This document shows positions 878 through 62,703 of a stretch of 64,000 bases of DNA, one piece after another. Both the position numbers and the translations under genes were made by a program. Origin of the DNA: Enterobacteria phage vB_EcoM_IME540; the sequence record MT150133.1; one strand, written 5' to 3'. The stretch's first letter is position 1; each line of letters begins with the position of its first letter. Under the pieces are notes generated by a model. It saw only the letters and a program-made list of their open reading frames with translations, searched no databases and had not been told where the DNA came from.

Positions 878-905
878 GGAACCTTCGGGTTCCTTTTTCG
901 TTTTT
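878..905 (+). terminator. intrinsic terminator (GGAACC-TTCG-GGTTCC hairpin plus T-run)
   Basis: Perfect 6-bp GC-rich stem with TTCG loop immediately after gp35 stop, followed by TTTTTCGTTTTT. Confidence 0.6.
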
Positions 906-951
906 ACGGCCATAAATATATAAAAGGCTATAACTCCCAAAGGAAACTCAA

Positions 952-1599
952 ATGGCAGATTTAAAATTAGGTTCTACAGCAGGAGGTTCGGTATTATGGC
1001 ACCAAGGTAATTTTCCCTTAACGCCTGTATCAAACGACCTTCTTTACAAAACATATAAAGTTTACACTGAATATAATAAACCACAAGCCGCTGATAACGA
1101 CTTTGTTTCAAAAGCAAACGGCGGCAATTATAAGAATAACGTGTATTTTGAAAAAGGTTTGACCTTTAATGATACCAATGGATATGGTATTAAATTAGGA
1201 GCAAGAACTGGCGGAGCCCCGTTCACAGCTTCTTTCCGTATTAAAGGTGCTTTTGGATATGAAACGGAAGATGGTACACCGTTCGTTATATTTGACCCAA
1301 GTACAGTAGTGGGTGCTAAACGCCTCACAGTAATGGGTGATTCATTATTCCGCCAAGTATATGACGAATCAGGTCGTGTATTCAGCCCAGGCAACACCCC
1401 TACTAAAGCCCAAGTAGGATTATCGTTAGTAGATAACGCAAAACAGGTCCAAATAAATAATACTAACATGCAAACAATGACCGGAGTACTTGCTGCTCCT
1501 AACTTTATTTCGCTGAATCCGGCCTCTGACGCAGGACACGTTCCTCGTTTTGACCAGATTGTTATTAAAGATTCTATTCAAGATTTTGGTTATTATTAA
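952..1599 (+). CDS. 36: long tail fiber distal subunit gp36
   Basis: N-terminus MADLK.GST.GGSV.WHQGNFPL and C-terminus HVPRFDQIVIKDS.QDFGYY match recalled T4 gp36; 215 aa; gene order 36-37. Confidence 0.9.
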   Translation: MADLKLGSTAGGSVLWHQGNFPLTPVSNDLLYKTYKVYTEYNKPQAADNDFVSKANGGNYKNNVYFEKGLTFNDTNGYGIKLGARTGGAPFTASFRIKGAFGYETEDGTPFVIFDPSTVVGAKRLTVMGDSLFRQVYDESGRVFSPGNTPTKAQVGLSLVDNAKQVQINNTNMQTMTGVLAAPNFISLNPASDAGHVPRFDQIVIKDSIQDFGYY

Positions 1600-1607
1600 G
1601 AGGCATT

Positions 1608-4600
1608 ATGGCTACTTTAAAGCAAATCCAATTTAAAAGAAGTAAAGTAGCCGGTGTACGTCCGACACCGGCCCAGTTGGCTGAAGGCGAACTGGCTATT
1701 AACTTAAAGGACCGATTACTTTTTACTAAAGACGATACCGGAGCGATTATCGACCTTGGCTTTGCTAAAGGTGGTAATATTGACGGCAATGTTATTCATA
1801 CCGGTAACTACAATCAAACCGGTGATTATACCCTAAATGGTACCTTTACCCAAACAGGTGATTTTAATTTAACCGGTATTGCTCGCGTAACTCGTGATAT
1901 TATTGCTGCAGGTCAGATAATGACTGAAGGCGGAGAACTTATTTCTAAGAGTGCTTCAACTTCTCATTTGAGATTCTTTGACGGTGCATCACGTGAACGT
2001 GGTATTATCTTTTCTCCTAATAATGCAGGGTTGACAACTCAGGTAGTTAATATCCGTGTTCAAGATTATGCCGCTGGTAGCGAAAGCACTTATGCATTTT
2101 CAGGCAATGGTCAATTTACTTCACCTGAAGTATCGGCATGGAAATCTATTTCATCCCCACAAATTCTGACCGATAAAGTTATTACAAATGGTAAGAAAGC
2201 TGGCGATTATGATATATCTTCATTAGCAAATAATAATTCTGCCACGGATAAAAACTATTTGCGCGTTGTACGTACCGACCCGGCGTCTGCAATGCTCCAT
2301 GAAATTTGTGAAAATAACGGTATCAGTTGGTATTCTGGTTCAACCCCTACTGATTATATGTTGTCTTTTGCTTATTCTGGCGGTTTTCAAGCTGGACATT
2401 CGATTGCAGTAGGTATGGAATCAGGGCCTATGACATATTCAGCCTTAGGTAAAGGTTCTATTGCTTTGGGTGATAATGATACCGGATTAAAATGGCATCA
2501 AGATGGATATTATTTCAGCGTTAATAACGGCACAAGAACTTTACTGTACGGCCCTGCAGAAACAACTAGCCTAAGAAAATTTGTGGCCGGTTATTCTGTA
2601 AACGGTACCGATTTAACCACTCCTCCGTCGGAAAACTATGCATTAGCCACTGTTGTTACTTACCATGATAATAACGCGTATGGTGATGGCCAAACTCTTT
2701 TAGGTTATTATCAAGGTGGTAATTATCACCACTATTTCCGTGGTAAGGGTACTACAAACGTTAACACTGCAGGTGGTCTGTTAGTTACTCCTGGTAATAT
2801 TGATGTTGTTGGTGGTTCGGTTAATATTGACGGCCGCAACAATGCTTCTACTCTGTTTTTCAGAGGAAATACTACAGGAAATAGTTCAGTTGATAACATG
2901 TCTATCAACGTTTGGGGTAACACCTTTAGTACAGTAGATGGCTTTCGTAAAAACGTGATGGAAATATCTGATGATATTAGTTGGATGCATTATATCCAGC
3001 GCAATAAAGATAATACCATTGAGGCTGTATTAAATGGGCAACAAACTATTAACGAAAATCTTGTTGTTAAAAAAGATATTTTGGTTGATAGAGCGGTCCA
3101 CACCGCTGGTGAAATTACTACAAATGCTGTTAACGGGCTCCGCATCTGGAACAACGATTACGGGGTCATTTTTAGACGTTCAGAAGGAAGTCTTCACATT
3201 ATTCCTACTGCATTTGGTGAAGGTAAAAATGGTGATATCGGACCACTTCGTCCATTTAGTTTGGCTTTAGATACCGGTAAGGTTGTTATTCCTGACTTGG
3301 ATTTGAGTTATGCTTCTTTTGCAGCAAACGGCTATATTAAATTCGGTGGACATGGTGCAGGTGCAGGCGGTTACGATATTCAATATGCACAAGCAGCTCC
3401 TGTTTTCCAAGAAATTGATGATGATGCTATAAACAAATATTATCCTATTGTTAAACAGAAGTTTTTAAACAGCAAAGCTGTTTGGTCTTTAGGTACTGAA
3501 ATTAATTCAGGTACATTTGTTTTACACCATATCAAAGAAGATGGTTCACAAGGCCATACATCAAGATTTAACGCTGATGGTACAGTTAACTTTCCGGATA
3601 ACGTTCTGGTCGATGGTGGTATTAACATGAAAGGCGTGATGACTTTTGACGCCGGACATTTAGGATCACAAGATTATTTTAAATTTAACCATTTGGGTGA
3701 TAGTAATAATGCTCGTGATAACATCATCCAGTTAGAAGATAGTCAAGGCGCTCATTTTTCCACTGAACGTACTTTAGCGACAGGTGCAATTAAAACTCGT
3801 TTCTTTGGCGAAACATCCACTGATGGTACATTATACCTAAATCAGATGAATAATAGCTCTGAACGATTCTCTATTAATAATTGGGGAAATTCAGAAGTTG
3901 GTCGCGCGGCAGTGATGGAAGTCAAAGATTCCAAAGGTTATCACTTCTATACTGAACGCAGGACAGATAACAGTTTGAATTTTGATGTTGGTGGCAATTT
4001 TACTGCGCATGGACCTTCCGGAATAACCATCAAAAACTCTGCTGGCGCTCGCCACATCTGGTTTAAAGATGATAGCGAATCGGAAAAGGCTGTTATCTGG
4101 GCTACAGATGAGGGTATTTTACATATACGAAATAATTATGGGGGTTCATTTAGTCATCACTTCCGGGGTGCAATGATTCTAGCGGAAGAGCGTGTTCCAT
4201 ATAATAGTGAATACGCTCTTATCCGTGGTAATATTTCCGGTGGTGCATGGGTAGACTGGCGAGATCGTCCGGCTGGATTGTTGGTAGACTGTCAGGACTC
4301 ACGAAATCAAGCATATAACATTTGGAAAGCTACTCATTGGGGCGAACAGCACATTGCGGCGATGGGTGTTCATGCCGGCGGTGGTAATCCTCATGTTGTA
4401 TTGCATGTGGGTGGGAGTGATTACGCATTTGGATTTAACGGTGATTTTACTGCTGGTGCTGCTGTATATTGTAACGACGTTTATATTCGTTCTGACCGTC
4501 GTCTGAAAATTAATGTTGAAGACTACGAAGAGAATGCGGTGGATAAGGTAAATAAACTCAAAGTTAAAACCTATGATAAAGTTAAATCTCTTTCTGACCG

Positions 4601-4844
4601 CGAAGTTATCGGCCATGAGATTGGTATTATCGCACAGGATTTGCAAGAAGTATTACCGGAAGCTGTTAGCACTTCTAGTGTCGGATCTCAGGATAACCCA
4701 GAAGAAATTTTAACAATTTCTAACTCCGCTGTGAATGCTCTTTTAATTAGGGCCATTCAGGAAATGAGTGAAGAAATTAAAGAATTGAAAACGCCTTTCT
4801 TCACTAAAATTGCTCGCAAAATTGGTAAATACTTTAAATTCTAA
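1608..4844 (+). CDS. 37: long tail fiber distal subunit gp37 with C-terminal intramolecular chaperone-like domain
   Basis: N-terminus MATLKQIQFKRSK.AG.RP...AEGELAINLKDR matches T4 gp37; 1078 aa; C-terminal ~120 aa (DRRLKINVEDY...IGHEIGIIAQDLQEVLPEAV) resembles the self-cleaving chaperone domain of fibers and endosialidases; SD AAGAGG. Confidence 0.93.
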   Translation: MATLKQIQFKRSKVAGVRPTPAQLAEGELAINLKDRLLFTKDDTGAIIDLGFAKGGNIDGNVIHTGNYNQTGDYTLNGTFTQTGDFNLTGIARVTRDIIAAGQIMTEGGELISKSASTSHLRFFDGASRERGIIFSPNNAGLTTQVVNIRVQDYAAGSESTYAFSGNGQFTSPEVSAWKSISSPQILTDKVITNGKKAGDYDISSLANNNSATDKNYLRVVRTDPASAMLHEICENNGISWYSGSTPTDYMLSFAYSGGFQAGHSIAVGMESGPMTYSALGKGSIALGDNDTGLKWHQDGYYFSVNNGTRTLLYGPAETTSLRKFVAGYSVNGTDLTTPPSENYALATVVTYHDNNAYGDGQTLLGYYQGGNYHHYFRGKGTTNVNTAGGLLVTPGNIDVVGGSVNIDGRNNASTLFFRGNTTGNSSVDNMSINVWGNTFSTVDGFRKNVMEISDDISWMHYIQRNKDNTIEAVLNGQQTINENLVVKKDILVDRAVHTAGEITTNAVNGLRIWNNDYGVIFRRSEGSLHIIPTAFGEGKNGDIGPLRPFSLALDTGKVVIPDLDLSYASFAANGYIKFGGHGAGAGGYDIQYAQAAPVFQEIDDDAINKYYPIVKQKFLNSKAVWSLGTEINSGTFVLHHIKEDGSQGHTSRFNADGTVNFPDNVLVDGGINMKGVMTFDAGHLGSQDYFKFNHLGDSNNARDNIIQLEDSQGAHFSTERTLATGAIKTRFFGETSTDGTLYLNQMNNSSERFSINNWGNSEVGRAAVMEVKDSKGYHFYTERRTDNSLNFDVGGNFTAHGPSGITIKNSAGARHIWFKDDSESEKAVIWATDEGILHIRNNYGGSFSHHFRGAMILAEERVPYNSEYALIRGNISGGAWVDWRDRPAGLLVDCQDSRNQAYNIWKATHWGEQHIAAMGVHAGGGNPHVVLHVGGSDYAFGFNGDFTAGAAVYCNDVYIRSDRRLKINVEDYEENAVDKVNKLKVKTYDKVKSLSDREVIGHEIGIIAQDLQEVLPEAVSTSSVGSQDNPEEILTISNSAVNALLIRAIQEMSEEIKELKTPFFTKIARKIGKYFKF

Positions 4845-4877
4845 TAACAAGGGGCAATGCCCCTTTGGAGATAAATT

Positions 4878-5681
4878 ATGGCAGTAGTTGGTGTTCCTGG
4901 TTGGATTGGAAGTTCAGCCGTAAATGAAACGGGCCAGCGCTGGATGAGTCAAGCGGCTGGTCAATTAAGATTAGGTGTTCCTTGCTGGATGAGTCAATTT
5001 GCAGGTCGCTCAAGAGAAATTATTCATACACTTGGAGCGGACCACAACTTTAACGGACAATGGTTTAGAGACCGTTGTTTTGAAGCCGGTGCTGCACCTA
5101 TTGTGTTTAATATTGTAGGCGATATAGTATCTTACGACCGTAACGTTCCGCTGTTCTTTATGAATGGTGATACTCCTAATGAATATGTTACTTTGAATAT
5201 TCATGGTGGGGTTCATATGTGGGGACGTGGTGGTCATGGCGGTTGGACCCACTCAGGTGGAGACGGTAACGGTCAATGGGGTGGCGATTGTATAGTCAAC
5301 CATATAGGTCATAGACTACGTATTTGGAACTATGGGGTTATCTGTGGCGGTGGCGGTGGTGGTGGTGGCATTGCGTATCGTCCTCACTCAGGTGCTAACT
5401 GGCAAGATATCGGTGGTGGTGGTGGACGTCCATTTGGTCCTGGTGGCGGTGGTGGATACTCCGGTGGTGGTGCTTCTTATGAAAGCCCTGGTGGTGGATA
5501 CGATTATGGTAATGCCCACTCAGGTCGTGGCGGTGATGCTGGCGGCGCTGGCGGCAACGCATGGAATGATGGTGGTAAAGTTCTTAAAGTTGGGGCTGGG
5601 GGCGGTTCTGGAGCTGCTGTTGCCATTTCTGCTCCTGCATGGGGCGCGACAGGTACGATTTACGGTCCTTGGCTTAGTTAA
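4878..5681 (+). CDS. 38: tail fiber tip adhesin gp38 (T2/T6-type, glycine-rich motifs)
   Basis: 267 aa directly after gp37; several poly-Gly stretches (GGGGGGGG, GGGGG) separated by short variable segments, as in T2-type receptor-binding gp38; SD GGAG. Confidence 0.8.
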
Positions 5682-5686
5682 GAAAT

Positions 5687-5694
5687 TATAAATA
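5687..5694 (+). promoter_or_regulatory. T4-type late promoter core TATAAATA
   Basis: Exact TATAAATA about 19 nt upstream of holin start, followed by SD AAGGAG. Confidence 0.55.
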
Positions 5695-5712
5695 TCTTTA
5701 AAGGAGAAAAGT

Positions 5713-6366
5713 ATGGAACCAAAAGTAGGAATATCATTATCAGACCTACTTTTTGGACTTCTTGATAGAATTTTTAAAGATACTTCTTCCGGGAAAGTAG
5801 TTTTTTCCCGGGTCCTAGTCGTGATATTATTGTTCTTTATGGCATTGGTTTGGTATAAAGGCGAGTATATTCTAAACTTTTATAAAGAGACAACTTATGC
5901 CTCTTATACTGAAATGATTAGACAAGACCAGGACAATAGATTTAAAATTGCGGCTATCGAGCAGCTCCGAATAGTGCATTCTTCTTCAGGCGCAGACTTC
6001 ACAGCAATATATTCTTTTAGACCAACCAACATGAATTATTTTGTGGATATGGTGGCTTACGAGGGTAAATTACCGGAAACGGTAGACGCAAAAAATACGG
6101 GAGGGTTTCCAATTGACAAAACGTCAGTAGAATATATGGTGGGAGTTAACGGGAACTATTTTGAATCAAGTACCGAAACTGTATTCCTTCCTACAAAGAA
6201 GAAAACACAATTCACGTATATGTTTTCGTGCCCGTTTTTTAATTTGGATAACGTCTACGCCGGCTCGATATCGTTGTACTGGTATGATATCAAACCGGAT
6301 TTAGGATTTCCTAGACTTTCGTCTATGTGCGGTCAGGCTGGGAGGACATTAGGTCGAACACGTTAG
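5713..6366 (+). CDS. t: holin T
   Basis: 217 aa; strong match to recalled T4 holin (LFG.LDR.FKD...GKV..SRV.VVILLF.MA.VWY, YSFRP.N.NYFVD..AYEGKLP, FLPTKK, YMFSCPFFNLDN.YAG). Confidence 0.95.
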   Translation: MEPKVGISLSDLLFGLLDRIFKDTSSGKVVFSRVLVVILLFFMALVWYKGEYILNFYKETTYASYTEMIRQDQDNRFKIAAIEQLRIVHSSSGADFTAIYSFRPTNMNYFVDMVAYEGKLPETVDAKNTGGFPIDKTSVEYMVGVNGNYFESSTETVFLPTKKKTQFTYMFSCPFFNLDNVYAGSISLYWYDIKPDLGFPRLSSMCGQAGRTLGRTR

Positions 6367-8049: not shown

Positions 8050-8682
8050 TCAGATTGCGTTAGTTACGGTTTTGATAACTTCAGATGATACATTTTGGAA
8101 GTCGATATAAGTATTCTTACCACCAGTCTTAATCTTAACATCAAGATTCAAGGAAGTAAACACTTGTTTTTCTTTATCAGTCATATTATAACCGAAGATA
8201 CGCATCATTCCGTCGCGACGGACTTCGATTTGACGAATACCATTGGTGCGTTTAGCGAATCGAACTTCAAGGTTGCTACGGTTTTCAGCAATTTCACGAA
8301 TCTCGATACGGTCTTCTAATAAAGCTTTAACTTCATCAGCCAGAGTTACCATTTCAGGAGTAACACCACGTGAACTGCGTGTTTTACGTTTTTCCAACAT
8401 CTCTGGAGCATTTTCAGAAGCGAACAGGTCGGCAGCTTTTTGAACTAGGTCCATTGCTTCACCTGTAGCCACTAAACCATCACCAGATTTTTCGATGAAT
8501 CCTTTCTTAATCAATACACCGATGTTAGAGTTAACTACCGCAGCACTAAATTGCTCACTCAGGGCTTCACGGACTTCGCCTGAAGTGATGAAGTTATGCT
8601 TGATGATATGTACTAAGATCGAAGCAGTTTTTTCATTCAGGACGTCTTCAGAAGCTTTGATGATATAAGTAATTTTAGACAT
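8050..8682 (-). CDS. motA: middle-transcription activator MotA
   Basis: Matches recalled T4 MotA (MSK.TYIIKAS.DVLNEKTA, VNSNIGVLIKKG..EKSGDGL..TGEA, KRTNGIR, MRIFGY.M); track start is GTG, true start ATG MSKITY with SD GGAGA. Confidence 0.93.
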   Translation of the reverse strand: MSKITYIIKASEDVLNEKTASILVHIIKHNFITSGEVREALSEQFSAAVVNSNIGVLIKKGFIEKSGDGLVATGEAMDLVQKAADLFASENAPEMLEKRKTRSSRGVTPEMVTLADEVKALLEDRIEIREIAENRSNLEVRFAKRTNGIRQIEVRRDGMMRIFGYNMTDKEKQVFTSLNLDVKIKTGGKNTYIDFQNVSSEVIKTVTNAI

Positions 8683-8720
8683 TTTGTATCTCCATTTCAC
8701 TCTATTGTTTTGATAGGTCT

Positions 8721-8749
8721 ATAGTATCATGTTTAAAGCAGAAGTAAAC
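8721..8749 (-). promoter_or_regulatory. early promoter (-35 GTTTAC, TGa-extended -10 TACTAT)
   Basis: Minus strand GTTTAC-TTCTGCTTTAAACATGA-TACTAT, then conserved leader AGACCTATCAA, 38 nt upstream of motA ATG. Confidence 0.6.
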
Positions 8750-8767
8750 ACTTTTTTCACTAAACCC

Positions 8768-8788
8768 AAAAAAGAACCCGAAGGTTCC
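8768..8788 (-). terminator. intrinsic terminator (GGAACC-TTCG-GGTTC hairpin plus TTTTTT)
   Basis: GC stem with TTCG loop and T-run on minus strand right after the micro-ORF that follows gene 52. Confidence 0.6.
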
Positions 8789-8893
8789 TTACTTTTTAAA
8801 GTGGGCCGCTATTAAACCTATAGCTAAGCCTGTCGCCAGGCCTAGAATAACAGCAAAGATACAGAGTAACAAGAACTCGACTCCAAGGCTCAT
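8789..8893 (-). CDS. small hydrophobic peptide (34 aa), translationally coupled to gp52
   Basis: ATG overlaps gp52 TGA stop (ATGA); sequence MSLGVEFLLLCIFAVILGLATGLAIGLIAAHFKK is a single predicted transmembrane helix; sub-threshold ORF. Confidence 0.45.
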   Translation of the reverse strand: MSLGVEFLLLCIFAVILGLATGLAIGLIAAHFKK

Positions 8894-10517: not shown

Positions 10518-10604
10518 ATTTTCCTCATTAGCGTCCGAAGACGCCTTTAGTTTTAAGATTGTTACGATAGAACTGCATCACATGTTCGTTATGGAAATTA
10601 CTCA

Positions 10605-11054: not shown

Positions 11055-11103
11055 ATCAATTTCCTCAGTAGATTAATGTTTTGTTATCCGGTCAACGAGA
11101 ACC

Positions 11104-11132
11104 ATTATAACATGATTCTCGAGGTTGTAAAC
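11104..11132 (-). promoter_or_regulatory. early promoter (-35 GTTTAC, 17 nt, -10 TATAAT)
   Basis: Consensus hexamers on minus strand 49 nt upstream of ndd ATG; inverted repeat CGAGAA / TTCTCG brackets the -10. Confidence 0.65.
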
Positions 11133-11476
11133 TATTTTTGTAGCTGTTCTAAAATAAATCCGCTGGTGTAAAGGCTTGCATTATACAGGCGGTCAAGAGA
11201 TAACGAATCCAATCCATAAGCTTCACGAATTGCATTGATAGCACTCTCATAACTTGTATAATAAACATCGCGATAATCGCGGTCCATAGTCATGCGGAAC
11301 TTAATAAATTTGTAGAAACCAGTTTCAGGGTCCTGATAGAATGCAAATTCTGCAGACGCTAAATTTTTAAGGTTAACAGCTTTTGTGTCGCCTGAATAAC
11401 TTAAATCAAATGTTTCTGACATGCTAATCTGTTTAAAGAACATAATGTTGCGATTACCAAAAAATAATTTAGACAT
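11132..11476 (-). CDS. hypothetical protein
   Basis: Track ORF trimmed to ATG MSKLFFG with SD AAGGAAAAT. Confidence 0.6.
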   Translation of the reverse strand: MSKLFFGNRNIMFFKQISMSETFDLSYSGDTKAVNLKNLASAEFAFYQDPETGFYKFIKFRMTMDRDYRDVYYTSYESAINAIREAYGLDSLSLDRLYNASLYTSGFILEQLQK

Positions 11477-13307: not shown

Positions 13308-13323
13308 GGAGGCCGAAGCCTCC
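13308..13323 (-). other. RNA stem-loop (GGAGGC-TTCG-GCCTCC) abutting the next SD
   Basis: 6-bp GC stem with TTCG tetraloop between rIIB stop and downstream SD; no T-run, so more likely a processing or stability element than a terminator. Confidence 0.45.
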
Positions 13324-17047: not shown

Positions 17048-17097
17048 ATTCTCACCTCTAGATAATCCTATCATAACCACGGGTCTTTGTAAACCCC

Positions 17098-17118
17098 GAA
17101 AAGGGCCCGAAGGCCCTT
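17098..17118 (-). terminator. intrinsic terminator (GGGCC-TTCG-GGCCC hairpin plus TTTT)
   Basis: GC-rich hairpin with TTCG loop just after the stop at 17125; a -35-like GTTTAC (17089..17094) follows. Confidence 0.6.
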
Positions 17119-17124: not shown

Positions 17125-17286
17125 TTAGTTACTTGAATCGACCTTATAGACTTGTCCGCGGGTTTGGTAAACTTCGCCGTCCCATGTCTCGACTGTAATA
17201 GTCACGTATTCTGCAAACTGAGGTCTAGTATCAGTCCAGATATAACCGTATTCACCGGTGACGAGCGTAACCCAGTACTTTCTCAT
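17125..17286 (-). CDS. hypothetical protein (53 aa)
   Basis: Track ORF trimmed to ATG MRKYWVTLV with SD AAGGAGA; directly downstream of gene 39. Confidence 0.5.
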   Translation of the reverse strand: MRKYWVTLVTGEYGYIWTDTRPQFAEYVTITVETWDGEVYQTRGQVYKVDSSN

Positions 17287-19172: not shown

Positions 19173-19199
19173 ATATTATCCCATTTCACTTAAAGCATA
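19173..19199 (-). promoter_or_regulatory. MotA-dependent middle promoter (MotA box TATGCTTTA, 12 nt, -10 TAATAT)
   Basis: MotA-box consensus (a/t)(a/t)TGCTT(t/c)A at the expected distance from a TAnnnT -10, 24 nt upstream of gene 39 ATG. Confidence 0.55.
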
Positions 19200-19216
19200 A
19201 AAGGGCCGAAGCCCTT
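19199..19216 (-). terminator. intrinsic terminator (GGGC-TTCG-GCCC hairpin plus TTTT)
   Basis: Hairpin overlaps stop of lipoprotein gene; T-run merges into the MotA box. Confidence 0.5.
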
Positions 19217-20509: not shown

Positions 20510-20551
20510 AATTTTTCTCTCTTGGTTAAAGGTTTATAATCCATGAGAGCC

Positions 20552-20580
20552 ATTATAACATGGCTCTCGATAAAGTAAAC
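20552..20580 (-). promoter_or_regulatory. early promoter (-35 GTTTAC, 17 nt, -10 TATAAT)
   Basis: Consensus hexamers; 7-bp inverted repeat GAGAGCC / GGCTCTC flanks the -10. Confidence 0.65.
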
Positions 20581-21844: not shown

Positions 21845-21871
21845 TTTGTTCTCCTCATGTTGATAGGGTAG

Positions 21872-21900
21872 ATAATATCATGTCATGAGGAGAAGTAAAC
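21872..21900 (-). promoter_or_regulatory. early promoter (-35 GTTTAC, TGa-extended -10 TATTAT)
   Basis: Spacer TTCTCCTCATG is the reverse complement of leader CATGAGGAGAA, which contains the SD. Confidence 0.6.
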
Positions 21901-25186: not shown

Positions 25187-25224
25187 GATTTTTCTCATCT
25201 TACGGACGATTAGTTGATAGGTCT

Positions 25225-25253: not shown

Positions 25254-25322
25254 ACTTTTTTGCTTTAAATTTTCGACGGTATAATGAATCAAGGACTTTG
25301 CCTTTCAATTAAACCGGGTGGT

Positions 25323-28196: not shown

Positions 28197-28226
28197 ATCT
28201 TAACATAACCTTCTTAGAAAGTAAAC
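28197..28226 (-). promoter_or_regulatory. early promoter-like element (-35 GTTTAC, 18 nt, -10 TAAGAT)
   Basis: Immediately downstream of the soc terminator. Confidence 0.5.
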
Positions 28227-28236
28227 CCTTAAAACC

Positions 28237-28258
28237 AAAAAAGGAACCCGAAGGTTCC
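28237..28258 (-). terminator. intrinsic terminator (GGAACC-TTCG-GGTTCC plus TTTTTT)
   Basis: Same hairpin sequence as at 878 and 62683; directly after soc stop. Confidence 0.65.
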
Positions 28259-28264
28259 TTATAA

Positions 28265-32686: not shown

Positions 32687-32715
32687 ATAGTATCACGCCT
32701 ACAGGAGATGTAAAC
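32687..32715 (-). promoter_or_regulatory. early promoter (-35 GTTTAC, TGa-extended -10 TACTAT)
   Basis: Immediately downstream of the gene 41 terminator; leader AGACCTATCAACTTGGAG. Confidence 0.6.
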
Positions 32716-32719
32716 CCTT

Positions 32720-32745
32720 AAAAACAAAAAAGGAGCCGAAGCTCC
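32720..32745 (-). terminator. intrinsic terminator (GGAGC-TTCG-GCTCC plus TTTTTTGTTTTT)
   Basis: Hairpin begins at the gene 41 stop codon and is followed by a long T-run. Confidence 0.65.
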
Positions 32746-34185
32746 TTAAAATTTGATAGATGCTGCTAAATCGTCCAAATCACTTCTATTAACACGCGTC
32801 TGTCGATTGACCTCGGCCTGGCGATTCATCTCACCTGTAGCCTCACGAACAGTGTTCACTGGGCCTGGGTTGGAATCATCTTCAACTTCGTACCAACGTT
32901 GATTTCCTTTCTTAACGCCAATCTTAAATTTGTTGTAGTAGCTCTTATCGCCATAACGAGATTTAAGCTGCTTAACCATCTGCATACCCATCTGAGCGAA
33001 CTCTTCTGTCTCGACCACACCCAACATGAAGTCTGCAGTATGTGCAATACCAAAGGATTCAGCAATATCGGCCATATCGATTTCGGCTGCAACGTTCGCA
33101 CCACGAGTAGTCTGGGCTGCAGTCCACAACAGTAATTTCTTCTCTACTGCAAGTCCACGTAGTTCTTCAGCAACCATCTTAATCAATCCGTAACTGTTTT
33201 CAGAGAAAACTTTCGTACGAGACGATGCACAGATAGCCAAGTAGTCAACGATAACGACCTGTGGGACAAAGTTTTGTTTGAGCTTGTATTCGTTTAATAA
33301 TGCACGGAATGTATCGGCATTAGCACCGCCAGTAGGATACTGTTTAATCTTTAAACGACCCAAGGTAGCAGTTGAACGCCATTTATCCATCTTAGCTTTA
33401 TATTCAGGCCAAGAGACGTGACCATCGTCAATATCGTCTAGTGATACATCCAGAAGGTTGGCATCGATACGCTTAGCACATACTTCCTCTGCCATCTCCA
33501 TGGAGATATAAAGAACATCGTAACCCGATTGAAGATAATCAGCAGCCAATGAACACAGACCCAGAGACTTACCTACGTTTGTTCCTGCCAACAATACGTT
33601 TTCAGTACCAAACTCAGCACCACCCTTGGTAATCTTATTCAGAATATTAAGACGGAATGGAACCTTACGTGCTTTATCAGAATAACTTTTGAATCGTTCT
33701 TCATAGTCATCCATCCAGTCATGACCTAATTCAGAATCGAAACAAATCGATAATGCATCACGCATGATATCTGGAATAGCACCAATACCTGGAAGTTTTC
33801 TATTTTGTTGCTCAACTGGAAGGTCGGCATTAGTTTGGATTTCAATGATTTTTGAAGTTGCATTATACATCGCTGCTTTCTGAACGTATTTCTCCGTCTC
33901 TTTAACCAACCATTCTTGGTCTTCAGGCCCGGAGTTCAGCGAACTTAAAAGCTCTTTAGCGCCTTGATGTTCAACTTCTGAAAGCGTACTGTTATCTAAT
34001 GCAATGCTCAATGCGTTCTTAGAAGGCACTGCATTATATTCATTGACGTGTTTTTTAATTTCTTTGAAAAGGGTCTTTGCAGGACCCTGGTCAAAATAAG
34101 AATCATTCATATAAGGCCAGACCTTAGTGAAATAATCACTATTGCCTAGCAGTTGAGCCAAAATAGTTTCTACCACTTCCACCAC
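32746..34185 (-). CDS. 41: replicative DNA helicase gp41 (DnaB-like)
   Basis: 479 aa; matches recalled T4 gp41 over long stretches (WLVKETEKYVQ, NATSKIIEIQTNA, KARKVPF.L.ILNKITKGGAE.GT, NVGKSLGLCSLAADYLQ, YISMEMAEEVCAKRIDAN). Confidence 0.97.
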   Translation of the reverse strand: MVEVVETILAQLLGNSDYFTKVWPYMNDSYFDQGPAKTLFKEIKKHVNEYNAVPSKNALSIALDNSTLSEVEHQGAKELLSSLNSGPEDQEWLVKETEKYVQKAAMYNATSKIIEIQTNADLPVEQQNRKLPGIGAIPDIMRDALSICFDSELGHDWMDDYEERFKSYSDKARKVPFRLNILNKITKGGAEFGTENVLLAGTNVGKSLGLCSLAADYLQSGYDVLYISMEMAEEVCAKRIDANLLDVSLDDIDDGHVSWPEYKAKMDKWRSTATLGRLKIKQYPTGGANADTFRALLNEYKLKQNFVPQVVIVDYLAICASSRTKVFSENSYGLIKMVAEELRGLAVEKKLLLWTAAQTTRGANVAAEIDMADIAESFGIAHTADFMLGVVETEEFAQMGMQMVKQLKSRYGDKSYYNKFKIGVKKGNQRWYEVEDDSNPGPVNTVREATGEMNRQAEVNRQTRVNRSDLDDLAASIKF

Positions 34186-43605: not shown

Positions 43606-43663
43606 TTCATTTCCTTTATAGACGAGTGATTGTCTTTTGTTTGTTGATGAATCATTATACTCC

Positions 43664-43681
43664 AAAAGGGACCGAAGTCCC
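43664..43681 (-). terminator. intrinsic terminator (GGGAC-TTCG-GTCCC plus TTTT)
   Basis: Hairpin after the small ORF downstream of regA; a TATAAT at 43654..43659 and a 48-nt leader precede the gene 43 ATG. Confidence 0.6.
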
Positions 43682-43686
43682 TTTGC

Positions 43687-45795: not shown

Positions 45796-45857
45796 ATTAA
45801 TTTCCTCAGGTTTGTTTTTACATTATACTCCAAGGGAGGAATATTCCTCCCTATGCT

Positions 45858-50194: not shown

Positions 50195-50798
50195 TACGTA
50201 TTCGTTCCCACATTTTGGAGGCTGCTTTAGAAGCAGAGCCAGGAAGTTTACCTTTGACCCACCCATCAGGAATATTAGATGGGTTAATCAGTTTATGTTC
50301 TATTCCGTTATTATACCACTTCCTGCCCTTATTATGACTAGATGCTTTATAATTAGGTGAACGACCTTCTACGTATCCTTCCGGGACTGTAGGTGCAAAG
50401 GTTTGTTCCAATGTAACAGGATTATAGGAATGAATATACCCTTTAGCATTATGAGAGCCGTAAAGAGGGTGTTGCTCTTTAGGTAGCGAAAGCCCAAAGA
50501 ATCCTTTAGGAGCTGCGACAGCCCTATTAAAGAATAGAGGATTTTGGGCCGCATCGGTTCTTAACTGGTACATTCTTTCAGCTTCTAAAGCCTCTTCTCT
50601 TGTAGGGTGTTCACTTACAATACACGAGTCAAATAATTCTGGATGCTCTAAAAGCTCATTTTTATAGATTTCTTTATATGCTTTAGAAAGGACACTCCCG
50701 TGATATCCTTTTAAATGCTTCTCTAAAGTGGTAGACCCTATATAAAACGGTGGAAGCTTAGTCCCGGAATATATTGTCAGGTATGTGATGTATTTCAT
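50181..50798 (-). CDS. GIY-YIG family homing endonuclease (Seg-like)
   Basis: N-terminal YITYLTIYSG...PFYIGST with downstream conserved R/E and N; C-terminal NUMOD3-like NKGRKWYNNGIEHKLINPSNIPDGWVKG. Confidence 0.65.
   Translation of the reverse strand: MKYITYLTIYSGTKLPPFYIGSTTLEKHLKGYHGSVLSKAYKEIYKNELLEHPELFDSCIVSEHPTREEALEAERMYQLRTDAAQNPLFFNRAVAAPKGFFGLSLPKEQHPLYGSHNAKGYIHSYNPVTLEQTFAPTVPEGYVEGRSPNYKASSHNKGRKWYNNGIEHKLINPSNIPDGWVKGKLPGSASKAASKMWERIRNENS
50181..50798 (-). mobile_element. free-standing homing endonuclease gene inserted between genes 47 and 55
   Basis: Seg-type endonuclease ORF at a locus that in T4 carries a-gt and mob/seg elements; bounded upstream by a terminator. Confidence 0.5.
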
Positions 50799-50826
50799 AG
50801 ATTTATTTTATCATCCATTCAGAAAG

Positions 50827-50847
50827 CAAAAAAGGAGCCTAAGCTCC
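50827..50847 (-). terminator. intrinsic terminator (GGAGC-TTAG-GCTCC plus TTTTTT)
   Basis: Hairpin with T-run upstream of the homing endonuclease gene; overlaps stop of a small ORF. Confidence 0.55.
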
Positions 50848-51012
50848 TTTACCAACTAATACACCATACAGAGGTTCATGAGAAGACCTGAACTTAATAG
50901 GCTTATATGTAATAGTACCTTCATTTTCTGCTTTAATACGAGCGGCTTCAAATTGAAGAATCATCTCGTTTTTGTCAGATTTAATCTTATCAAAATCCAT
51001 CGAATTCGTCAT
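50839..51012 (-). CDS. hypothetical small protein (57 aa)
   Basis: Sub-threshold ORF MTNSMDFDKIKSDKNEMILQFEAARIKAENEGTITYKPIKF... with SD AAGAGG; stop lies in terminator loop; coordinates approximate. Confidence 0.35.
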   Translation of the reverse strand: MTNSMDFDKIKSDKNEMILQFEAARIKAENEGTITYKPIKFRSSHEPLYGVLVGKGA

Positions 51013-53258: not shown

Positions 53259-53297
53259 AATAATTTCCTCAGTTTTAAATTTATAATCCGTAGGACC

Positions 53298-53327
53298 ATT
53301 ATACTCTGGTCCCAAGAGTTTGTAAAC
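53298..53327 (-). promoter_or_regulatory. early promoter (-35 GTTTAC, 18 nt, -10 TATAAT)
   Basis: Consensus hexamers; -35 overlaps upstream stop codon; inverted repeat GGACCA / TGGTCC brackets the -10. Confidence 0.65.
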
Positions 53328-54217: not shown

Positions 54218-54390
54218 AATTTGATTTCCTTAGCTATCGAACAAAATACACCACGGTCACAAATCATTTTAATATTAAGATCAATTATGATATACCACAC
54301 ATCCAGGCTAGATATTTCAGTTACTAGAACAGCTTTGCCGTTGATTGAATAATACTGGTCGACTTTAATTTCTTTATCTTGGATAGTCAT
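54214..54390 (-). CDS. hypothetical small protein (58 aa)
   Basis: Sub-threshold ORF MTIQDKEIKVDQYYSINGKAVLVTEISSLDVWYIIIDLNIKM... after SD GAGGAG in conserved leader; stop overlaps next ATG (ATGA). Confidence 0.4.
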   Translation of the reverse strand: MTIQDKEIKVDQYYSINGKAVLVTEISSLDVWYIIIDLNIKMICDRGVFCSIAKEIKL

Positions 54391-54419
54391 AATGTTCTCC
54401 TCATGTGTTGATAGGATAG

Positions 54420-54448
54420 ACTATAACACATGAGGAGAGGAAGTAAAC
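54420..54448 (-). promoter_or_regulatory. early promoter (-35 GTTTAC, TGt-extended -10 TATAGT)
   Basis: Spacer CTCCTCATGTG is complementary to leader CACATGAGGAG, which contains the SD. Confidence 0.55.
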
Positions 54449-61208: not shown

Positions 61209-61234
61209 GATAACCTCCAGTAGTTGATATGTCT

Positions 61235-61263
61235 ATAGTATCATTTCTACTGGAGATGTAAAC
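61235..61263 (-). promoter_or_regulatory. early promoter (-35 GTTTAC, TGa-extended -10 TACTAT)
   Basis: Spacer CTCCAGTAG is complementary to leader CTACTGGAG, which contains the SD. Confidence 0.6.
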
Positions 61264-61265
61264 AA

Positions 61266-61607
61266 CTAATAGAAACTTTTTTCACCTGCTTGTCCACTAA
61301 ACCACGCTGATTGGGTCACAGTTTTCCTTTGTTGAGCGATACGCTCTTGATAATCACTACGAATGGCGCGCTGCTTATCTCTGAAGTCGCCTGCCAACTT
61401 TACCTGCTTGCGGTCTAGATTTATTAAGGCCTGGGTCTTCGCGGCCAAGAGCAATCTCCTGTAGTCTCCTTCTTCGGATTCAGTTTTATAAACTCTATTA
61501 GTATATCCGTCGACAACTTCTTTATCATAGTCCTCGACGGACTGTTTCATGGCATCACGATGGGCCAAACCTGCGTTATAAAGATTGTAAATAAATTGTT
61601 CGAACAT
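61266..61607 (-). CDS. hypothetical protein (113 aa)
   Basis: Co-directional ORF. Confidence 0.65.
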   Translation of the reverse strand: MFEQFIYNLYNAGLAHRDAMKQSVEDYDKEVVDGYTNRVYKTESEEGDYRRLLLAAKTQALINLDRKQVKLAGDFRDKQRAIRSDYQERIAQQRKTVTQSAWFSGQAGEKSFY

Positions 61608-61616: not shown

Positions 61617-62597
61617 TTATTTCAGAAGTGTAACTTCAGAGATTTCACCCCAGTCATTTTTATCGGTGGCAATGAAATCCGCCAGATAAAGAGCTGTACG
61701 TAATGATACGTTACGAAGACGAGATACATTAGCCTTCATCCATGCTAAAGCTTGGTAAGTCTCGGCGTCAGTCAGACCACGGTTTTGCATCATATCAGTG
61801 GACAGGATAACGTCTTCAACACGAACCATAATCTCTTCGTTCGAGTGAACTCCGAGGTCTAAGTAAACTGAACGCGATACTAAAGCCTGGAGGTGTGGAG
61901 CAAGTTTAGTTCCACGCTCTAATTCACGGTCGATATCAACGTTGGTGATGAACACGATGGTGCCTTCGTATTCGAATTCTTTATCGATGTTTTTATCATC
62001 GAGATAAGAACTTGAAGTGCTCCAGCACACCTTACGTTTTTCACCGGTATCCAATGCCGCTTTCAGAAGGTTCAGGATATCCATATCAGAGAATACATCA
62101 ACATCATCGATAAGAAGAACACTATTAGGGCCGCGGTTATTCCAAAGCTGCTCGTAAAGACCGATTCCACTAATCTTTCCGTTGATTGATTTATATTCGA
62201 TAGTTTCATTTTCGTGGGCATTCTGTAATGCTTTATCCAAAGAATACGTTTTACCAATACCTGCGGCACCAGAGATGATAAGGGAACGAATTTTACCATC
62301 GATGATTCCGTTGGTCATCATGTTCATTACTTTAAAACGTTTGTTGATGCGATGTTTCATTTCTTCAGCGGATTCAGTAACAACTGCAGGAGCTTCAGCA
62401 CCTTCGGTTTCGATATCACATTTGAACACCCATACACCACGTTCAACACCATCAATCTGTACGAATACCTTGCCATCACCGAGGTGAGCTTCGGATTCAT
62501 GAATTTTATTAGGGAACCAGGTTTTACCTGAACTCATGAACGTACCAGAGATTACATTACCGCGATAGATACCTTTGTTGATTTTGATAGTTAACAT
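61617..62597 (-). CDS. AAA+ family ATPase (327 aa)
   Basis: Walker A GAAGIGKT and Walker B LLIDDVD; track ORF extends upstream through the promoter, true start ATG MLTIKINKG after SD GGAGAA. Confidence 0.7.
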   Translation of the reverse strand: MLTIKINKGIYRGNVISGTFMSSGKTWFPNKIHESEAHLGDGKVFVQIDGVERGVWVFKCDIETEGAEAPAVVTESAEEMKHRINKRFKVMNMMTNGIIDGKIRSLIISGAAGIGKTYSLDKALQNAHENETIEYKSINGKISGIGLYEQLWNNRGPNSVLLIDDVDVFSDMDILNLLKAALDTGEKRKVCWSTSSSYLDDKNIDKEFEYEGTIVFITNVDIDRELERGTKLAPHLQALVSRSVYLDLGVHSNEEIMVRVEDVILSTDMMQNRGLTDAETYQALAWMKANVSRLRNVSLRTALYLADFIATDKNDWGEISEVTLLK

Positions 62598-62634
62598 TAT
62601 ATTCTCCATTTCACTCAGTAGATTTGATAGGTCC

Positions 62635-62663
62635 ATAATAACATGCTCTACGAGAGTGTAAAC
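62635..62663 (-). promoter_or_regulatory. early promoter (-35 GTTTAC, 17 nt, -10 TATTAT)
   Basis: Directly downstream of terminator at 62683; leader GGACCTATCAAATCTACTGAG. Confidence 0.6.
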
Positions 62664-62682
62664 TCTTTTTTGCACTAAACCC

Positions 62683-62703
62683 AAAAAGGAACCCGAAGGT
62701 TCC
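62683..62703 (-). terminator. intrinsic terminator (GGAACC-TTCG-GGTTCC plus TTTTT)
   Basis: Same hairpin sequence as at 878 and 28237; starts in the stop codon of the upstream gene. Confidence 0.65.

Follow-up and report, generated by a model that had tools for sequence, protein, structure and literature searches.

The repeated hairpins in this DNA, a 64,000-nucleotide stretch that we refer to as the window, are very probably ordinary c(UUCG)g transcription-terminator or RNA-stability elements of T4-like phages, mostly fused to promoters as in the published PeSL cassette. The evidence, all observed directly, consists of the anatomy of the sequences, their bias towards one strand, orthologues in T4, covariation and one indel flanked by repeats. 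The source phage is T4-like and belongs to the Bp7/JS98 (Dhakavirus) group, and its hairpins add one more example to biology that is already well described.

Census and orientation of the UUCG hairpins

A pattern search of the window located the exact 16-mer GGAACCTTCGGGTTCC (GGAACC-UUCG-GGUUCC in RNA) at 878-893 (+), 28243-28258 (-) and 62688-62703 (-), together with a one-mismatch copy, GGAACCTTCGGGTTCT, at 8773-8788 (-), whose last pair is G.U in RNA. These correspond to the identical or near-identical hairpins that an earlier, sequence-only reading had placed at 878, 8768, 28237 and 62683. The 16-mer search it had proposed, run on the window, gave four matches against 0.01 expected from 100 dinucleotide shuffles; the three minus-strand starts were a few bases low, the T-run having been included. 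The full stems of these four copies, with flanking A:U pairs, are listed in Table 1. Related hairpins reported at 17098, 19199 and 43664 were found at 17101, 19201 and 43665, and one assigned to 32720 also exists, but 10 nt away, at 32730. Overlooked in that reading were the C(UUCG)G hairpins at 10531, 13308 and 63876, as well as a relative with a UUAG loop at 50831.

Counting perfect stems of 5 bp or more, the sense strand of the window carries 11 C(UUCG)G hairpins and the antisense strand none, while the same count in 200 dinucleotide shuffles had a mean of 0.27 and a maximum of 4. UUCG is the commonest tetraloop of sense-strand hairpins (11 versus 3 for the runner-up), closing pair and loop read C(UUCG)G in 11/11 copies, and predicted stabilities range from -8 to -12 kcal/mol. 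Seven hairpins (876, 8771, 17101, 19201, 28241, 32730 and 62687) lie just 3' of a stop codon and continue into a U-run of 4-6 U from the stem end, with the stop often within or abutting the stem. A generic terminator scan was noisy, yielding 67 sites against ~44 expected.

It had also been argued that the self-complementary stem allows the element to work in either orientation. Any hairpin stem is self-complementary, so this property is uninformative, and the claim is unsupported because loop and U-run matter, both of which are strand-specific. The loop on the sense strand is UUCG in 11/11 copies and CGAA in none; the antisense 3' flanks AUAAUUAAAC, AAAUUGCAUU, AAAAUUUGAU and AUUAGUUUAG contain no U-runs, and only the 876 copy (AAUAUUUUUC) passed a loose terminator scan of the antisense strand. 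Copies do occur on both strands, as had been stated, but this merely mirrors the block layout, a plus-strand late tail-fibre block (1-6366) and a minus-strand early/middle block from ~6363, with each copy 3' of its own transcription unit.

Hairpins joined to promoters

The interpretation of the hairpins as terminators held for the seven copies named above, which display full intrinsic-terminator anatomy: a GC-containing stem, a 4-nt loop, a U-run, a position after the upstream stop and co-orientation with transcription. It did not hold for some others, as 10531 and 13308 lack a U-run and 43665 has only UUUU. The promoters that follow the seven comprise five early ones (GTTTAC N16-17 TAnnAT, 6-24 nt on), one MotA middle promoter and one late-like ATAAATA (876, +). 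Compact terminator-promoter junctions had been proposed, and five hairpins indeed pass straight into an early promoter of the T4 type, the GTTTAC -35 element following after 6 nt (17101), 14 nt (28241, 32730) or 23-24 nt (62687, 8771/8774). The minus strand contains ~20 intergenic GTTTAC N16-18 TAnnnT sites, and a UUCG hairpin directly precedes five of them. As read from its sequence, 19173..19216 couples a predicted terminator to a middle promoter; its TGCTTTA N12 TAATAT matches the MotA box consensus and the spacing of 12 +/- 1 (PMC2988021). The 876 hairpin has an identical copy in Bp7. That at 8771 directly follows the TAA of a small membrane-protein ORF, itself downstream of gene 52, and forms a 112-nt cassette with the segment 8680..8770. 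The ORF upstream of the 32730 hairpin, gene 41 helicase, matches DnaB_C.

Table 1. Hairpins and associated signals in the window.
Feature	Position	Strand	Context
Gene 35 TAA stop	875-877	+	within 5' arm of 876 hairpin
Hairpin AAGGAACC-UUCG-GGUUCCUU	876..895	+	8 bp, -10.9 kcal/mol; U-run UUUUUCGUUUUU after
Late-promoter-like CATAAATATATAAAA (ATAAATA-type)	911..925	+	between gene 35 hairpin and gene 36 (start 952); read from sequence
U-run, GGGUUUAGUG, A6 tract, early promoter, AGACCTATCAA, 5' UTR, SD GGAG, motA ATG	8680..8770	-	
motA early promoter	-35 GTTTAC 8749-8744; -10 TACTAT 8726-8721	-	
Hairpin AAGGAACC-UUCG-GGUUCUUU + U-run	8771..8790	-	8 pairs including one G.U; -8.2 kcal/mol
Hairpin GCGUC-UUCG-GACGC	10531..10544	-	in 3' end of 26-aa stp ORF; no U-run; then UAAUGAGGA + AUG
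Hairpin GGAGGC-UUCG-GCCUCC	13308..13323	-	between rIIB and denB.1; no U-run; then UAAUGAGGA + AUG
Early promoter upstream of rIIA.1	-35 GTTTAC 17094-17089; -10 TAGGAT 17070-17065	-	element 17065..17118
Hairpin AAGGGCC-UUCG-GGCCCUU	17101-17118	-	-12.1 kcal/mol; then UUUUCGGG; Bp7 identical
Second TAA of tandem TAATAA, end of 66-aa ORF	17125..17127	-	overlaps base of 17101 hairpin region
Middle promoter upstream of gene 39	MotA box TGCTTTA 19197-19191; 12-nt spacer; -10 TAATAT 19178-19173	-	element 19173..19216
Hairpin AAGGGC-UUCG-GCCCUU	19201-19216	-	stem holds TAA of 39.1-like ORF; UUUUA next
Early promoter downstream of soc	-35 GTTTAC 28226-28221; -10 TAAGAT 28202-28197	-	element 28197..28260
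Hairpin AAGGAACC-UUCG-GGUUCCUU	28241-28260	-	downstream of soc; then UUUUGGUUUUAAGG
Early promoter after gene 41	-35 32715-32710; -10 TACTAT 32692-32687	-	element 32687..32747
Hairpin AAGGAGC-UUCG-GCUCCUU	32730-32747	-	gene 41 helicase TAA in stem; then UUUUGUUUUUAAGG
Hairpin AAAGGGAC-TTCG-GTCCCTTT (RNA AAAGGGAC-UUCG-GUCCCUUU)	43665..43684	-	after small ORF downstream of regA
MotA-box-like TTGCTTTC, 11-nt spacer, TAAAAT after UUAG hairpin	50788..50850 (whole element)	-	
UUAG-loop relative AAAGGAGC-UUAG-GCUCCUUU	50831-50850	-	UUU next
Early promoter upstream of nrdC.10 homologue	-35 GTTTAC 62663-62658; -10 TATTAT 62640-62635	-	element 62635..62704
Hairpin AGGAACC-UUCG-GGUUCCU	62687-62704	-	stem holds TAG of 80-aa DUF7279 ORF; then UUUUGGGUUUAGUGC, A6 tract
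Hairpin GGCUAC-UUCG-GUAGCC	63876..63891	-	5' end of nrdC.11 homologue, between two candidate AUGs; no U-run

From this anatomy, together with the precedents in T4 and RB49, we infer termination in this phage; termination efficiency, 3'-end protection and promoter use of the T-run are presumptive. The seven U-run hairpins and the UUAG variant at 50831 would serve as factor-independent terminators or attenuators that end transcription units. The U-runs at 17101 (UUUUCGGGG) and 19201 (UUUUAUGCUUU) are short or interrupted, and these two may therefore be weak attenuators. A hairpin remaining at the RNA 3' end would also shield the message from 3' exonucleases. Each U-run hairpin sits 6-24 nt from the predicted promoter of the next unit (early at five, MotA middle at 19201 and 50831, late-like at 876), whose -40 to -60 (UP-element) zone would be filled by the terminator T-run and the next A/T tract. 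Such a composite is the published PeSL (promoter-early stem-loop) or PmSL (promoter-middle stem-loop) cassette. Being repeated, the cassettes would also provide homologous stretches at which recombination could insert, delete or exchange small genes.

Downstream of the hairpins at 10531 and 13308, uaaugAGGA and an AUG follow directly. The hairpin at 43665 has a short U-run, just UUUU before GGAG, then UGGAGUAUAAUG, and gene 43 starts ~75 nt further downstream. For 10531, 13308 and probably 43665, a role between cistrons in RNA stability or in the context of translation initiation is more likely than termination, and the three hairpins without a U-run are probably not terminators.

Orthologues, copied cassettes and alternative explanations

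T4 bears C(UUCG)G hairpins with other stems at the same junctions: 35/36, after soc, 39.1/39, regA/43 and in stp. At 35/36, GGGACCC-UUCG-GGUUCCC precedes a U-run and TATAAATA, which is the T4 late promoter consensus. The hairpin after soc, at 15303, is accompanied by GTTTAC N17 TATAAT, and that at 39.1/39 (5381), AAAGGCC-UUCG-GGCCUUU, by AGCTTTA N12 TATAAT (MotA box). The regA/43 junction (29952-29969) has AAGGGGC-UUCG-GCCCCUU with AUUUGGAGUAUAAU, and the stp hairpin at 165510-165525 is the orthologue of 10531. For the soc site, orthologues from T4 and 17 viral contigs provided 13 distinct sequences, in which 94% of stem cells are paired versus 79% in shuffles and 5/9 pairs show compensatory changes on both sides. 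The covariation score of 0.419 versus 0.165 was reached by 0/500 shuffles, slid registers scored lower, and the UUCG loop is retained in 12/13 distinct sequences.

The cassettes at 8771/8774 and 62687, 54 kb apart, are 80% identical over 112 nt. In Bp7, an extra ORF is bracketed by a duplicated 8749 promoter and 5' UTR. This is the only clear indel with flanking repeats, and the repeat that recombines there consists of promoter plus 5' UTR and excludes the hairpin. The 62687 promoter is shared by Bp7, where it stands behind another UUCG stem (AAAGGCC/GGCCUUU) and the 80-aa ORF is absent; in other phages homology ends cluster at the hairpin borders of this site. The link between hairpins and indels is no stronger than intergenic placement predicts, as 5 of ~15 Bp7/window junctions touch a cassette versus ~4 expected.

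One could regard the hairpins chiefly as RNA-stability or processing barriers, that is, 3'-exonuclease blocks or RBS-opening folding nuclei with little or no termination. The copies at 10531, 13308 and 43665, with SD and AUG directly after them in place of a proper U-run, would suit such a role, as would a c(UUCG)g loop that is more stable than a terminator requires. Work by Tuerk et al. from 1988 (PNAS 85:1364) reportedly tied such hairpins to several processes. We nevertheless consider this rather unlikely, as a stability-only element has no need of a U-run, while seven copies possess one of 4-6 U and each is then followed by a fresh promoter, the layout expected if upstream transcription stops; moreover, PeSL stem-loops of RB49 caused termination when placed in a reporter (PMC2839356). 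For the 43665 hairpin, situated between regA and gene 43 and upstream of the latter, a part in a translational operator for gp43 DNA polymerase or RegA, instead of termination, is also conceivable, given that the operator hairpin bound by gp43 in T4 is ~40 nt ahead of the gene's own start codon (PMC3014915). This is quite improbable, however: the T4/RB69 operator hairpin is a separate structure with a -UAAC- loop (PMC3014915), and the T4 operator (GAGCCUAAUAACUCGGGCUA) lies downstream of the T4 UUCG hairpin, so that the latter comes in addition to the operator. The window has no obvious counterpart of that operator.

Among very diverse viral contigs, at least 120 stretches contain the exact 16-mer, and 77/121 of the matches listed have 6 or more T among the 8 bases after it; being so widespread and often T-followed, the 16-mer is a generic, repeatedly used terminator sequence. 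This, and the variation of the soc-site stem among relatives (GGAACC, GGAAUCC, GGACUCC, GGGAACC), would agree with the four identical GGAACC stems having converged independently on a favoured terminator design. We find it doubtful that this happened without copying between sites, since the identity of 8771/8774 and 62687 extends far past the hairpin and 28241 and 32730 have the common tail UUUUG(G/U)UUUUAAGG-GTTTAC; these shared flanks suggest that entire cassettes have a common origin or underwent gene conversion. With ~1024 (4^5) possible 6-bp stems closed by C-G, four identical stems among eight U-run hairpins are also unlikely by independent drift. A function mainly as DNA (cruciforms, recombination or packaging signals, nuclease targets), with the RNA structure incidental, might explain why homology breakpoints of relatives cluster at the 62687 hairpin borders and why several Bp7 indels adjoin hairpins, and PeSLs have been proposed as recombination substrates (PMC4122927, PMC2839356). 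Yet a cruciform is symmetric, whereas UUCG is on the transcribed strand in 11/11 copies and the U-run is always transcriptionally 3'. G.U-compatible pairs, which work in RNA and not in duplex DNA, are kept (GGUUCU at 8771; G.U in the sequence L130), and the coincidence with junctions does not exceed that predicted from intergenic placement, making a mainly DNA-level function very unlikely.

Comparison with known systems

As probable terminators of the T4 type, the hairpins can be compared with several described elements. T4 intrinsic terminators have been reviewed (PMC2988022). Like the C(UUCG)G mRNA hairpins of T4, those in the window are intercistronic, co-oriented and mostly followed by poly(U), with GC-rich stems of 5-8 bp; they differ in stem sequences changed by compensatory substitutions. 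One GGAACC stem is common to four sites here, whereas the T4 stems found all differ, and two UUCG hairpins, one following gene 41 and one preceding motA, occupy sites at which T4 has none with a perfect stem.

In PeSL/PmSL cassettes of PST/T4, a stem-loop lies just upstream of a promoter with the consensus TTTACW N17 TAYWAT (Comeau et al. 2014, PMC4122927), and a PeSL stem-loop terminated on par with rrnB T1 in a reporter (Arbiol et al. 2010, PMC2839356). The order of stem-loop, A/T-rich zone, early promoter, SD and start codon is shared, as are the fit to the PST/T4 promoter consensus, repetition across the early region, middle-promoter versions and ORF indels between close relatives, one with duplicated cassette flanks. 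By contrast, stems in the window follow the consensus AAGG(A/G)(A/G)CC-UUCG and not the RB49 poly-G/poly-C or PST AGNA type, just 5/~20 early promoters bear a hairpin, and one hairpin is joined to a late-type promoter (876). For JS98, the literature mentions PeSL-like sequences only for the g43 region (PMC2839356).

In bacterial promoter-coupled terminators, the stem-loop DNA is the -35 element, the T-tract forms the spacer and termination occurs ~10 bp from the start site (Fletcher et al. 2026, bioRxiv 10.64898/2026.08.19.745784). There, too, a terminator and the next same-strand promoter share a short intergenic stretch, with the terminator within the promoter footprint. In our phage, however, the hairpin is upstream of the -35 element and the T-run in the UP-element zone; termination is therefore predicted ~35-60 nt before the start site. 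The bypass hairpin of T4 gene 60 (GAUAGCC-UUCG-GGCUAUC, T4 2837-2854) has the same C(UUCG)G cap and a short stem, but acts on the ribosome within a coding gap, whereas gene 39 of this phage, at 605 aa, is unsplit and has no such gap.

Repeated UUCG hairpins and their orientation

The 16-mer GGAACC-UUCG-GGUUCC (GGAACCTTCGGGTTCC) is reused at several sites on both strands, as a sequence-only reading had proposed: exact copies lie at 878 (plus strand), 28243 and 62688 (both minus strand), and a one-mismatch copy lies at 8773 (minus strand), where the RNA stem is kept because the mismatch converts the outer G-C pair to G.U. Four related hairpins listed in the same reading are also present, and to these we add three perfect C(UUCG)G hairpins and a relative with a UUAG loop (Table; hairpins are named by the lower start coordinate of their stem, and 8771, 8773 and 8774 denote one site). 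A chance origin of the repeat is ruled out by the match count, four in the window against 0.01 expected, and by a tetraloop census: among perfect stems 5 bp or longer, UUCG-loop hairpins number 11 on the transcribed strand and 0 antisense, compared to a mean of 0.27 and a maximum of 4 in dinucleotide shuffles. Every other tetraloop occurs at most three times among the counted hairpins, and the loop with its closing pair, C-TTCG-G, is on the sense strand in all 11.

The further suggestion that the self-complementary stem allows function in either orientation did not hold. In addition to the 11 to 0 strand count, the antisense loop is CGAA, and U-runs are missing from the 3' flanks on the antisense strand, with a weak exception in the antisense tail of 876 (AAUAUUUUUC), which passes a loose scan. 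Every hairpin site sits between co-directional genes. The combination typical of a bidirectional terminator, a 5' A-run and a 3' U-run under convergent transcription, was not found; the sole convergent junction in the window, t/asiA (~6363-6366), carries no such hairpin. Both the bias towards one strand and the tolerance of G.U pairs argue for an element that acts as RNA rather than as a DNA cruciform.

With 5-8 bp, 3-5 G:C pairs, a 4-nt loop and predicted stabilities of about -6.7 to -12.1 kcal/mol, the stems have the make-up of terminator stems, and they are placed like terminators, with a stop codon within or beside the 5' arm and in the orientation of their transcription unit. They fall into two classes. 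In class 1, the stem begins in or right after the upstream stop codon and is followed by a U-run, which at its best holds at least 5-6 U in the 8 nt directly 3' of the stem. In class 2, a Shine-Dalgarno sequence and start codon follow directly; no proper U-run was found on the transcribed strand 3' of stems 10531, 13308 and 63876, and the probable role of the U-less hairpins is to stabilise or insulate RNA between cistrons. Hairpin 10531 has the same place as its T4 counterpart, within the closing codons of the 26-aa stp gene. This gene (10518-10604, minus strand; T4 165505-165585) ends in codons for G V F G R that encode GCGUC-UUCG-GACGC, conserved with T4, where stp is an activator of the host PrrC anticodon nuclease.

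Hairpins and associated features in the window and in T4
Feature	Position	Strand	Details
Hairpin 876	876-895	+	16-mer copy, stem incl. flanking A:U pairs; class 1, U-run; stop/stem overlap TAAGGAACC
Hairpin 8771	8771-8790	-	One-mismatch 16-mer copy, stem incl. flanking A:U pairs; class 1, U-run; stem to -35, 23-24 nt
Hairpin 10531	10531-10544	-	Perfect C(UUCG)G; class 2
Hairpin 13308	13308-13323		Perfect C(UUCG)G; class 2
Hairpin 17101	17101-17118	-	Class 1, weaker U-run; stem to -35, 6 nt
Hairpin 19201	19201-19216	-	Class 1, weaker U-run; stop/stem overlap TAAGGGC
Hairpin 28241	28241-28260	-	16-mer copy, stem incl. flanking A:U pairs; class 1, U-run; stem to -35, 14 nt
Hairpin 32730	32730-32747	-	Class 1, U-run; stop/stem overlap TAAGGAGC; stem to -35, 14 nt
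Hairpin 43665	43665-43684	-	Arguably class 2, marginal U-run
Hairpin 50831	50831-50850		UUAG loop; class 1, U-run
Hairpin 62687	62687-62704	-	16-mer copy, stem incl. flanking A:U pairs; class 1, U-run; stop/stem overlap TAGGAACC; stem to -35, 23-24 nt
Hairpin 63876	63876-63891		Perfect C(UUCG)G; class 2
Conserved post -10 block, examples	8710-8757, 25214-25261, 31707-31769, 32676-32723, 61224-61271		
-10-spanning inverted repeats	21860-21900, 54390-54448, 20545-20568, 11092-11136, 53293-53312	-	e.g. CTCCTCATG...CATGAGGAG, or GAGAGCCAT-GTTATA-ATGGCTCTC
Late tail-fibre block	1-6366	+	Genes 35, 36, 37, 38, t (Bp7/T4 annotation)
Early/middle block	from ~6363	-	asiA, motA, 52, ndd, stp, denB, rIIB, rIIA, 39, ... 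soc, ... 41, ... 43, regA, 62, 44, 45, ... nrdC.10, nrdC.11 (Bp7/T4 annotation)
T4, after gene 35	35/36 junction		GGGACCC-UUCG-GGUUCCC, one C.U mismatch, then U-run and TATAAATA
T4, 39.1/39	5381		AAAGGCC-UUCG-GGCCUUU, then AGCTTTA N12 TATAAT
T4, after soc	15303		AAGGACUCC-UUCG-GGAGUCCUU, then U-run and GTTTAC N17 TATAAT
T4, regA/43	29952		Hairpin, then GGAGUAUAAU, as in the window
T4, inside stp	165510		C(UUCG)G hairpin

Promoters joined to the hairpins

A generic promoter/terminator scan was too noisy for counting terminators and returned promoter-like sites at or below shuffle expectation, because T4 early promoters use GTTTAC, not TTGACA. A dedicated search (GT[TA]TAC N16-18 TAnnnT) yielded about 20 intergenic T4-type early promoter sites on the minus strand, five of which are directly preceded by a UUCG hairpin (8774, 17101, 28241, 32730 and 62687). 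The ~20 sites make up the largest repeat families in the window (D1, D2, D3, D6 and D10), with the common block TAtacTAT-AGACCTATCAA. The block, written as TA(t/c)(a/t)AT-AGACCTATCAA and conserved just downstream of the -10 element at at least 10 sites, takes in the start site with the earliest transcribed nucleotides and extends past the usual -35/-10 consensus. Many early promoters also carry a second inverted repeat across the -10 element, with the next gene's Shine-Dalgarno sequence in its 3' arm; this repeat could sequester the ribosome-binding site in read-through transcripts, but not in promoter-started ones.

Two hairpins lead into middle-type promoters. At 19201, the stem is followed by TTATGCTTTA, 12 nt and TAATAT, a tail that fits the MotA-box consensus (a/t)(a/t)(a/t)TGCTTtA at 12 +/- 1 bp from the -10 element (PMC2988021), and hairpin 50831 is followed by TTGCTTTC, 11 nt and TAAAAT. 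Hairpin 876 on the plus strand is followed by CATAAATAT, for which the T4 equivalent at the 35/36 junction is TATAAATA. As hairpins precede early, middle and late-type promoters, one terminator module is joined to all three. At 43665, we asked whether the CUUCG of the loop could also act as a MotA box of degenerate sequence (core CTT(t/c)), serving the -10-like TATAAT behind it, and rejected this, since a suitable spacer is present in the window (13 nt) but that of T4 (15 nt) does not fit. An identical 12-mer, UGGAGUAUAAUG, follows two minus-strand hairpins, at 43653-43664 after 43665 and at 45821-45832 after 45833, an AUAU-loop hairpin between genes 45 and 44; the T4 regA/43 hairpin is also followed by GGAGUAUAAU (T4 about 29940-29950). 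The 12-mer could be a Shine-Dalgarno sequence plus AUG, or a -10 element.

The earlier proposal of terminators in compact junctions with promoters is largely right, and the junctions are confirmed for the early class, with GTTTAC 6-24 nt after the stem at its five sites. In the mechanism we propose, a polymerase on an early, middle or late unit would transcribe a c(UUCG)g hairpin that forms right after the stop codon, and the transcript would be released in the U-run, retaining at its 3' end a hairpin that may shield it against exonucleases. A fresh promoter 6-24 nt downstream would then restart transcription with its own timing class. The T-run and A-tract lie in the zone of alpha-CTD UP elements, at -40 to -60. 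Because the stop codon lies within the stem, a terminating ribosome could interfere for a short time with hairpin formation and thereby modulate read-through.

Counterparts in T4 and other viruses

In a megablast search with the first 20 kb of the window, the matches were T4-like coliphages, the best being Shigella phage PSD9, Escherichia phages LHE83 and E33, and Bp7 (genus Dhakavirus, Tevenvirinae), at 94-96% identity over ~90% of the query; gene names follow the annotations of Bp7 and T4. At these junctions T4, too, has C(UUCG)G hairpins, with stems of other sequence (Table). The T4 RefSeq record lists no promoter or terminator features that could serve as evidence. The whole window matched no Rfam family at gathering thresholds, as expected, since terminators are not curated families.

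With Soc as a probe, we found a hairpin right after soc in all cases, that is, in 17 viral contigs and T4. Its stems are GGAACC, GGGAACC, GGAAUCC or GGACUCC, each with a complementary 3' arm, and the UUCG loop is retained in 12 of 13 distinct sequences. In the helix of nine pairs, pairing holds in 94% of cells compared to 79% in shuffles, five of the nine pairs show two-sided changes, and the covariation score of 0.419 (versus 0.165) was reached by none of 500 shuffles, slid registers being clearly worse. In this small sample of related sequences, the pattern is supportive of selection for pairing. The promoter behind the hairpin alternates among phages, being either early (GTTTAC...) or middle (TGCTTTTAA N12 TATAAT).

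The exact 16-mer also occurs in at least 120 stretches of very diverse IMG/VR contigs, and among the matches listed, 77 of 121 occurrences have 6 or more T within the 8 bases that follow. The diversity of contigs and the frequent T-run therefore mark it as a generic design for phage terminators and not, taken alone, as a lineage marker or a mobile element. In a subset of contigs (including L012, L014, L027, L043, L068, L071, L073 and L077), the T-run is missing and the 16-mer sits in the common context GGT-16mer-AAGCAGGC, which suggests a conserved element, structured or coding, from a different group of viruses.

Cassettes, gene gain or loss and known systems

In T4-type phages, the published PeSL (promoter-early stem-loop) cassettes combine a stem-loop terminator with an early promoter, an A/T-rich zone, a Shine-Dalgarno sequence and a start codon; they are repeated in plastic regions and have been proposed to mediate modular shuffling (Arbiol 2010, PMC2839356; Comeau 2014, PMC4122927). 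Cassettes in the window are likewise repeated at several intergenic sites and conserved over tens of nucleotides (repeat families D1-D4). Those at 8774 and 62687 share 80% identity over 112 nt, spanning hairpin, U-run, A-tract, -35, -10, 5' UTR and Shine-Dalgarno sequence, though they lie 54 kb apart.

The clearest difference from Bp7 lies between 52 and motA, where Bp7 has an extra 71-aa ORF, F392_gp092, ending with its own non-UUCG hairpin (AGAGCUCUU-GAAAA-AGAGCUC). In Bp7, this ORF is flanked by two near-identical copies of early promoter plus 5' UTR, and the window holds one copy (Bp7 locus L001 15500-15800 versus window 8680-8757); judged by this arrangement, the difference is a signature of direct-repeat recombination, a clean repeat-mediated gain or loss of a cassette. 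Further sites with a suggestive link to indels are 62687, 19201 and 45852. At 62687, an 80-aa ORF (62706-62945, minus strand; Pfam DUF7279, E = 1.6e-10), found between nrdC.11 and nrdC.10 in some relatives only, arrives with the GGAACC hairpin, whereas Bp7 has at the same spot only an AAAGGCC-UUCG-GGCCUUU hairpin before the same promoter. In other phages, homology to this region begins or ends at query 392-432, the borders of hairpin and U-run.

We also considered the hairpin itself as the crossover site for indels. We rejected this, because hairpin cassettes are involved in five of ~15 Bp7/window indel junctions, roughly the number expected from an intergenic position by itself, and because the repeat at the clean indel consists of promoter and 5' UTR. 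Several other junctions are homing-endonuclease insertions. It is a tentative and rather unlikely extension that the GGAACC-stem hairpin-promoter cassettes of the Bp7/JS98 (Dhakavirus) lineage are actively homogenised or exchanged, by gene conversion or by PeSL-type excision and integration of mini-circles, with the hairpin/T-run border as preferred crossover, moving small ORFs with their own terminator and swapping promoters of the early, middle and late types while the terminator module stays constant; the early-to-middle promoter swap among relatives at the soc site is cited with this reading.

Between the 50831 hairpin with its middle promoter and gene 47, the window has a 205-aa ORF (50184-50798, minus strand) without counterpart in Bp7; a weak, below-threshold GIY-YIG match (E = 0.0078) suggests that it is probably a seg-like homing endonuclease. 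Annotated Bp7 endonucleases missing from the window are an HNH enzyme at 39.1/39 and homing endonucleases beside genes 61 and 46; a further hypothetical ORF of Bp7, gp157, is located between its genes 45 and 44.

Such elements are well known from T4-type phages and have direct orthologues in T4, and as a discovery they carry little weight: this Dhakavirus-like genome shares the T4 punctuation, in which c(UUCG)g hairpins for termination and stability are fused to a promoter of the early, middle or late type. Together, hairpins and promoters reliably mark the boundaries of transcription units, which helps in annotating the genome, and the repeated cassettes mark sites of gain and loss of small accessory genes, an aid to reading the mosaicism of therapeutic coliphages. 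GGAACC-UUCG-GGUUCC with a U-run, a compact terminator of many unrelated phages, is useful in synthetic biology.

In structure, the bypass hairpin of T4 gene 60 falls into one class with the other C(UUCG)G hairpins. T4 has its topoisomerase large subunit split into 39 and 60; gene 39 of the window is one 605-aa ORF (17331-19148, minus strand) and, being unsplit, has no translational-bypass gap. PeSL stem-loops of the PST/T4 type lie just upstream of a promoter with the consensus TTTACW N17 TAYWAT, and middle versions (PmSL) exist (Arbiol 2010, PMC2839356; Comeau 2014, PMC4122927); in a reporter, a PeSL stem-loop terminated transcription about as well as rrnB T1 (PMC2839356). The composites of the window fit this description, five being early-type (8774, 17101, 28241, 32730 and 62687) and two middle-type (19201 and 50831). 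The inverted repeats spanning the -10 element share the geometry of RB49-type PeSLs, in which the stem-loop overlaps the -10.
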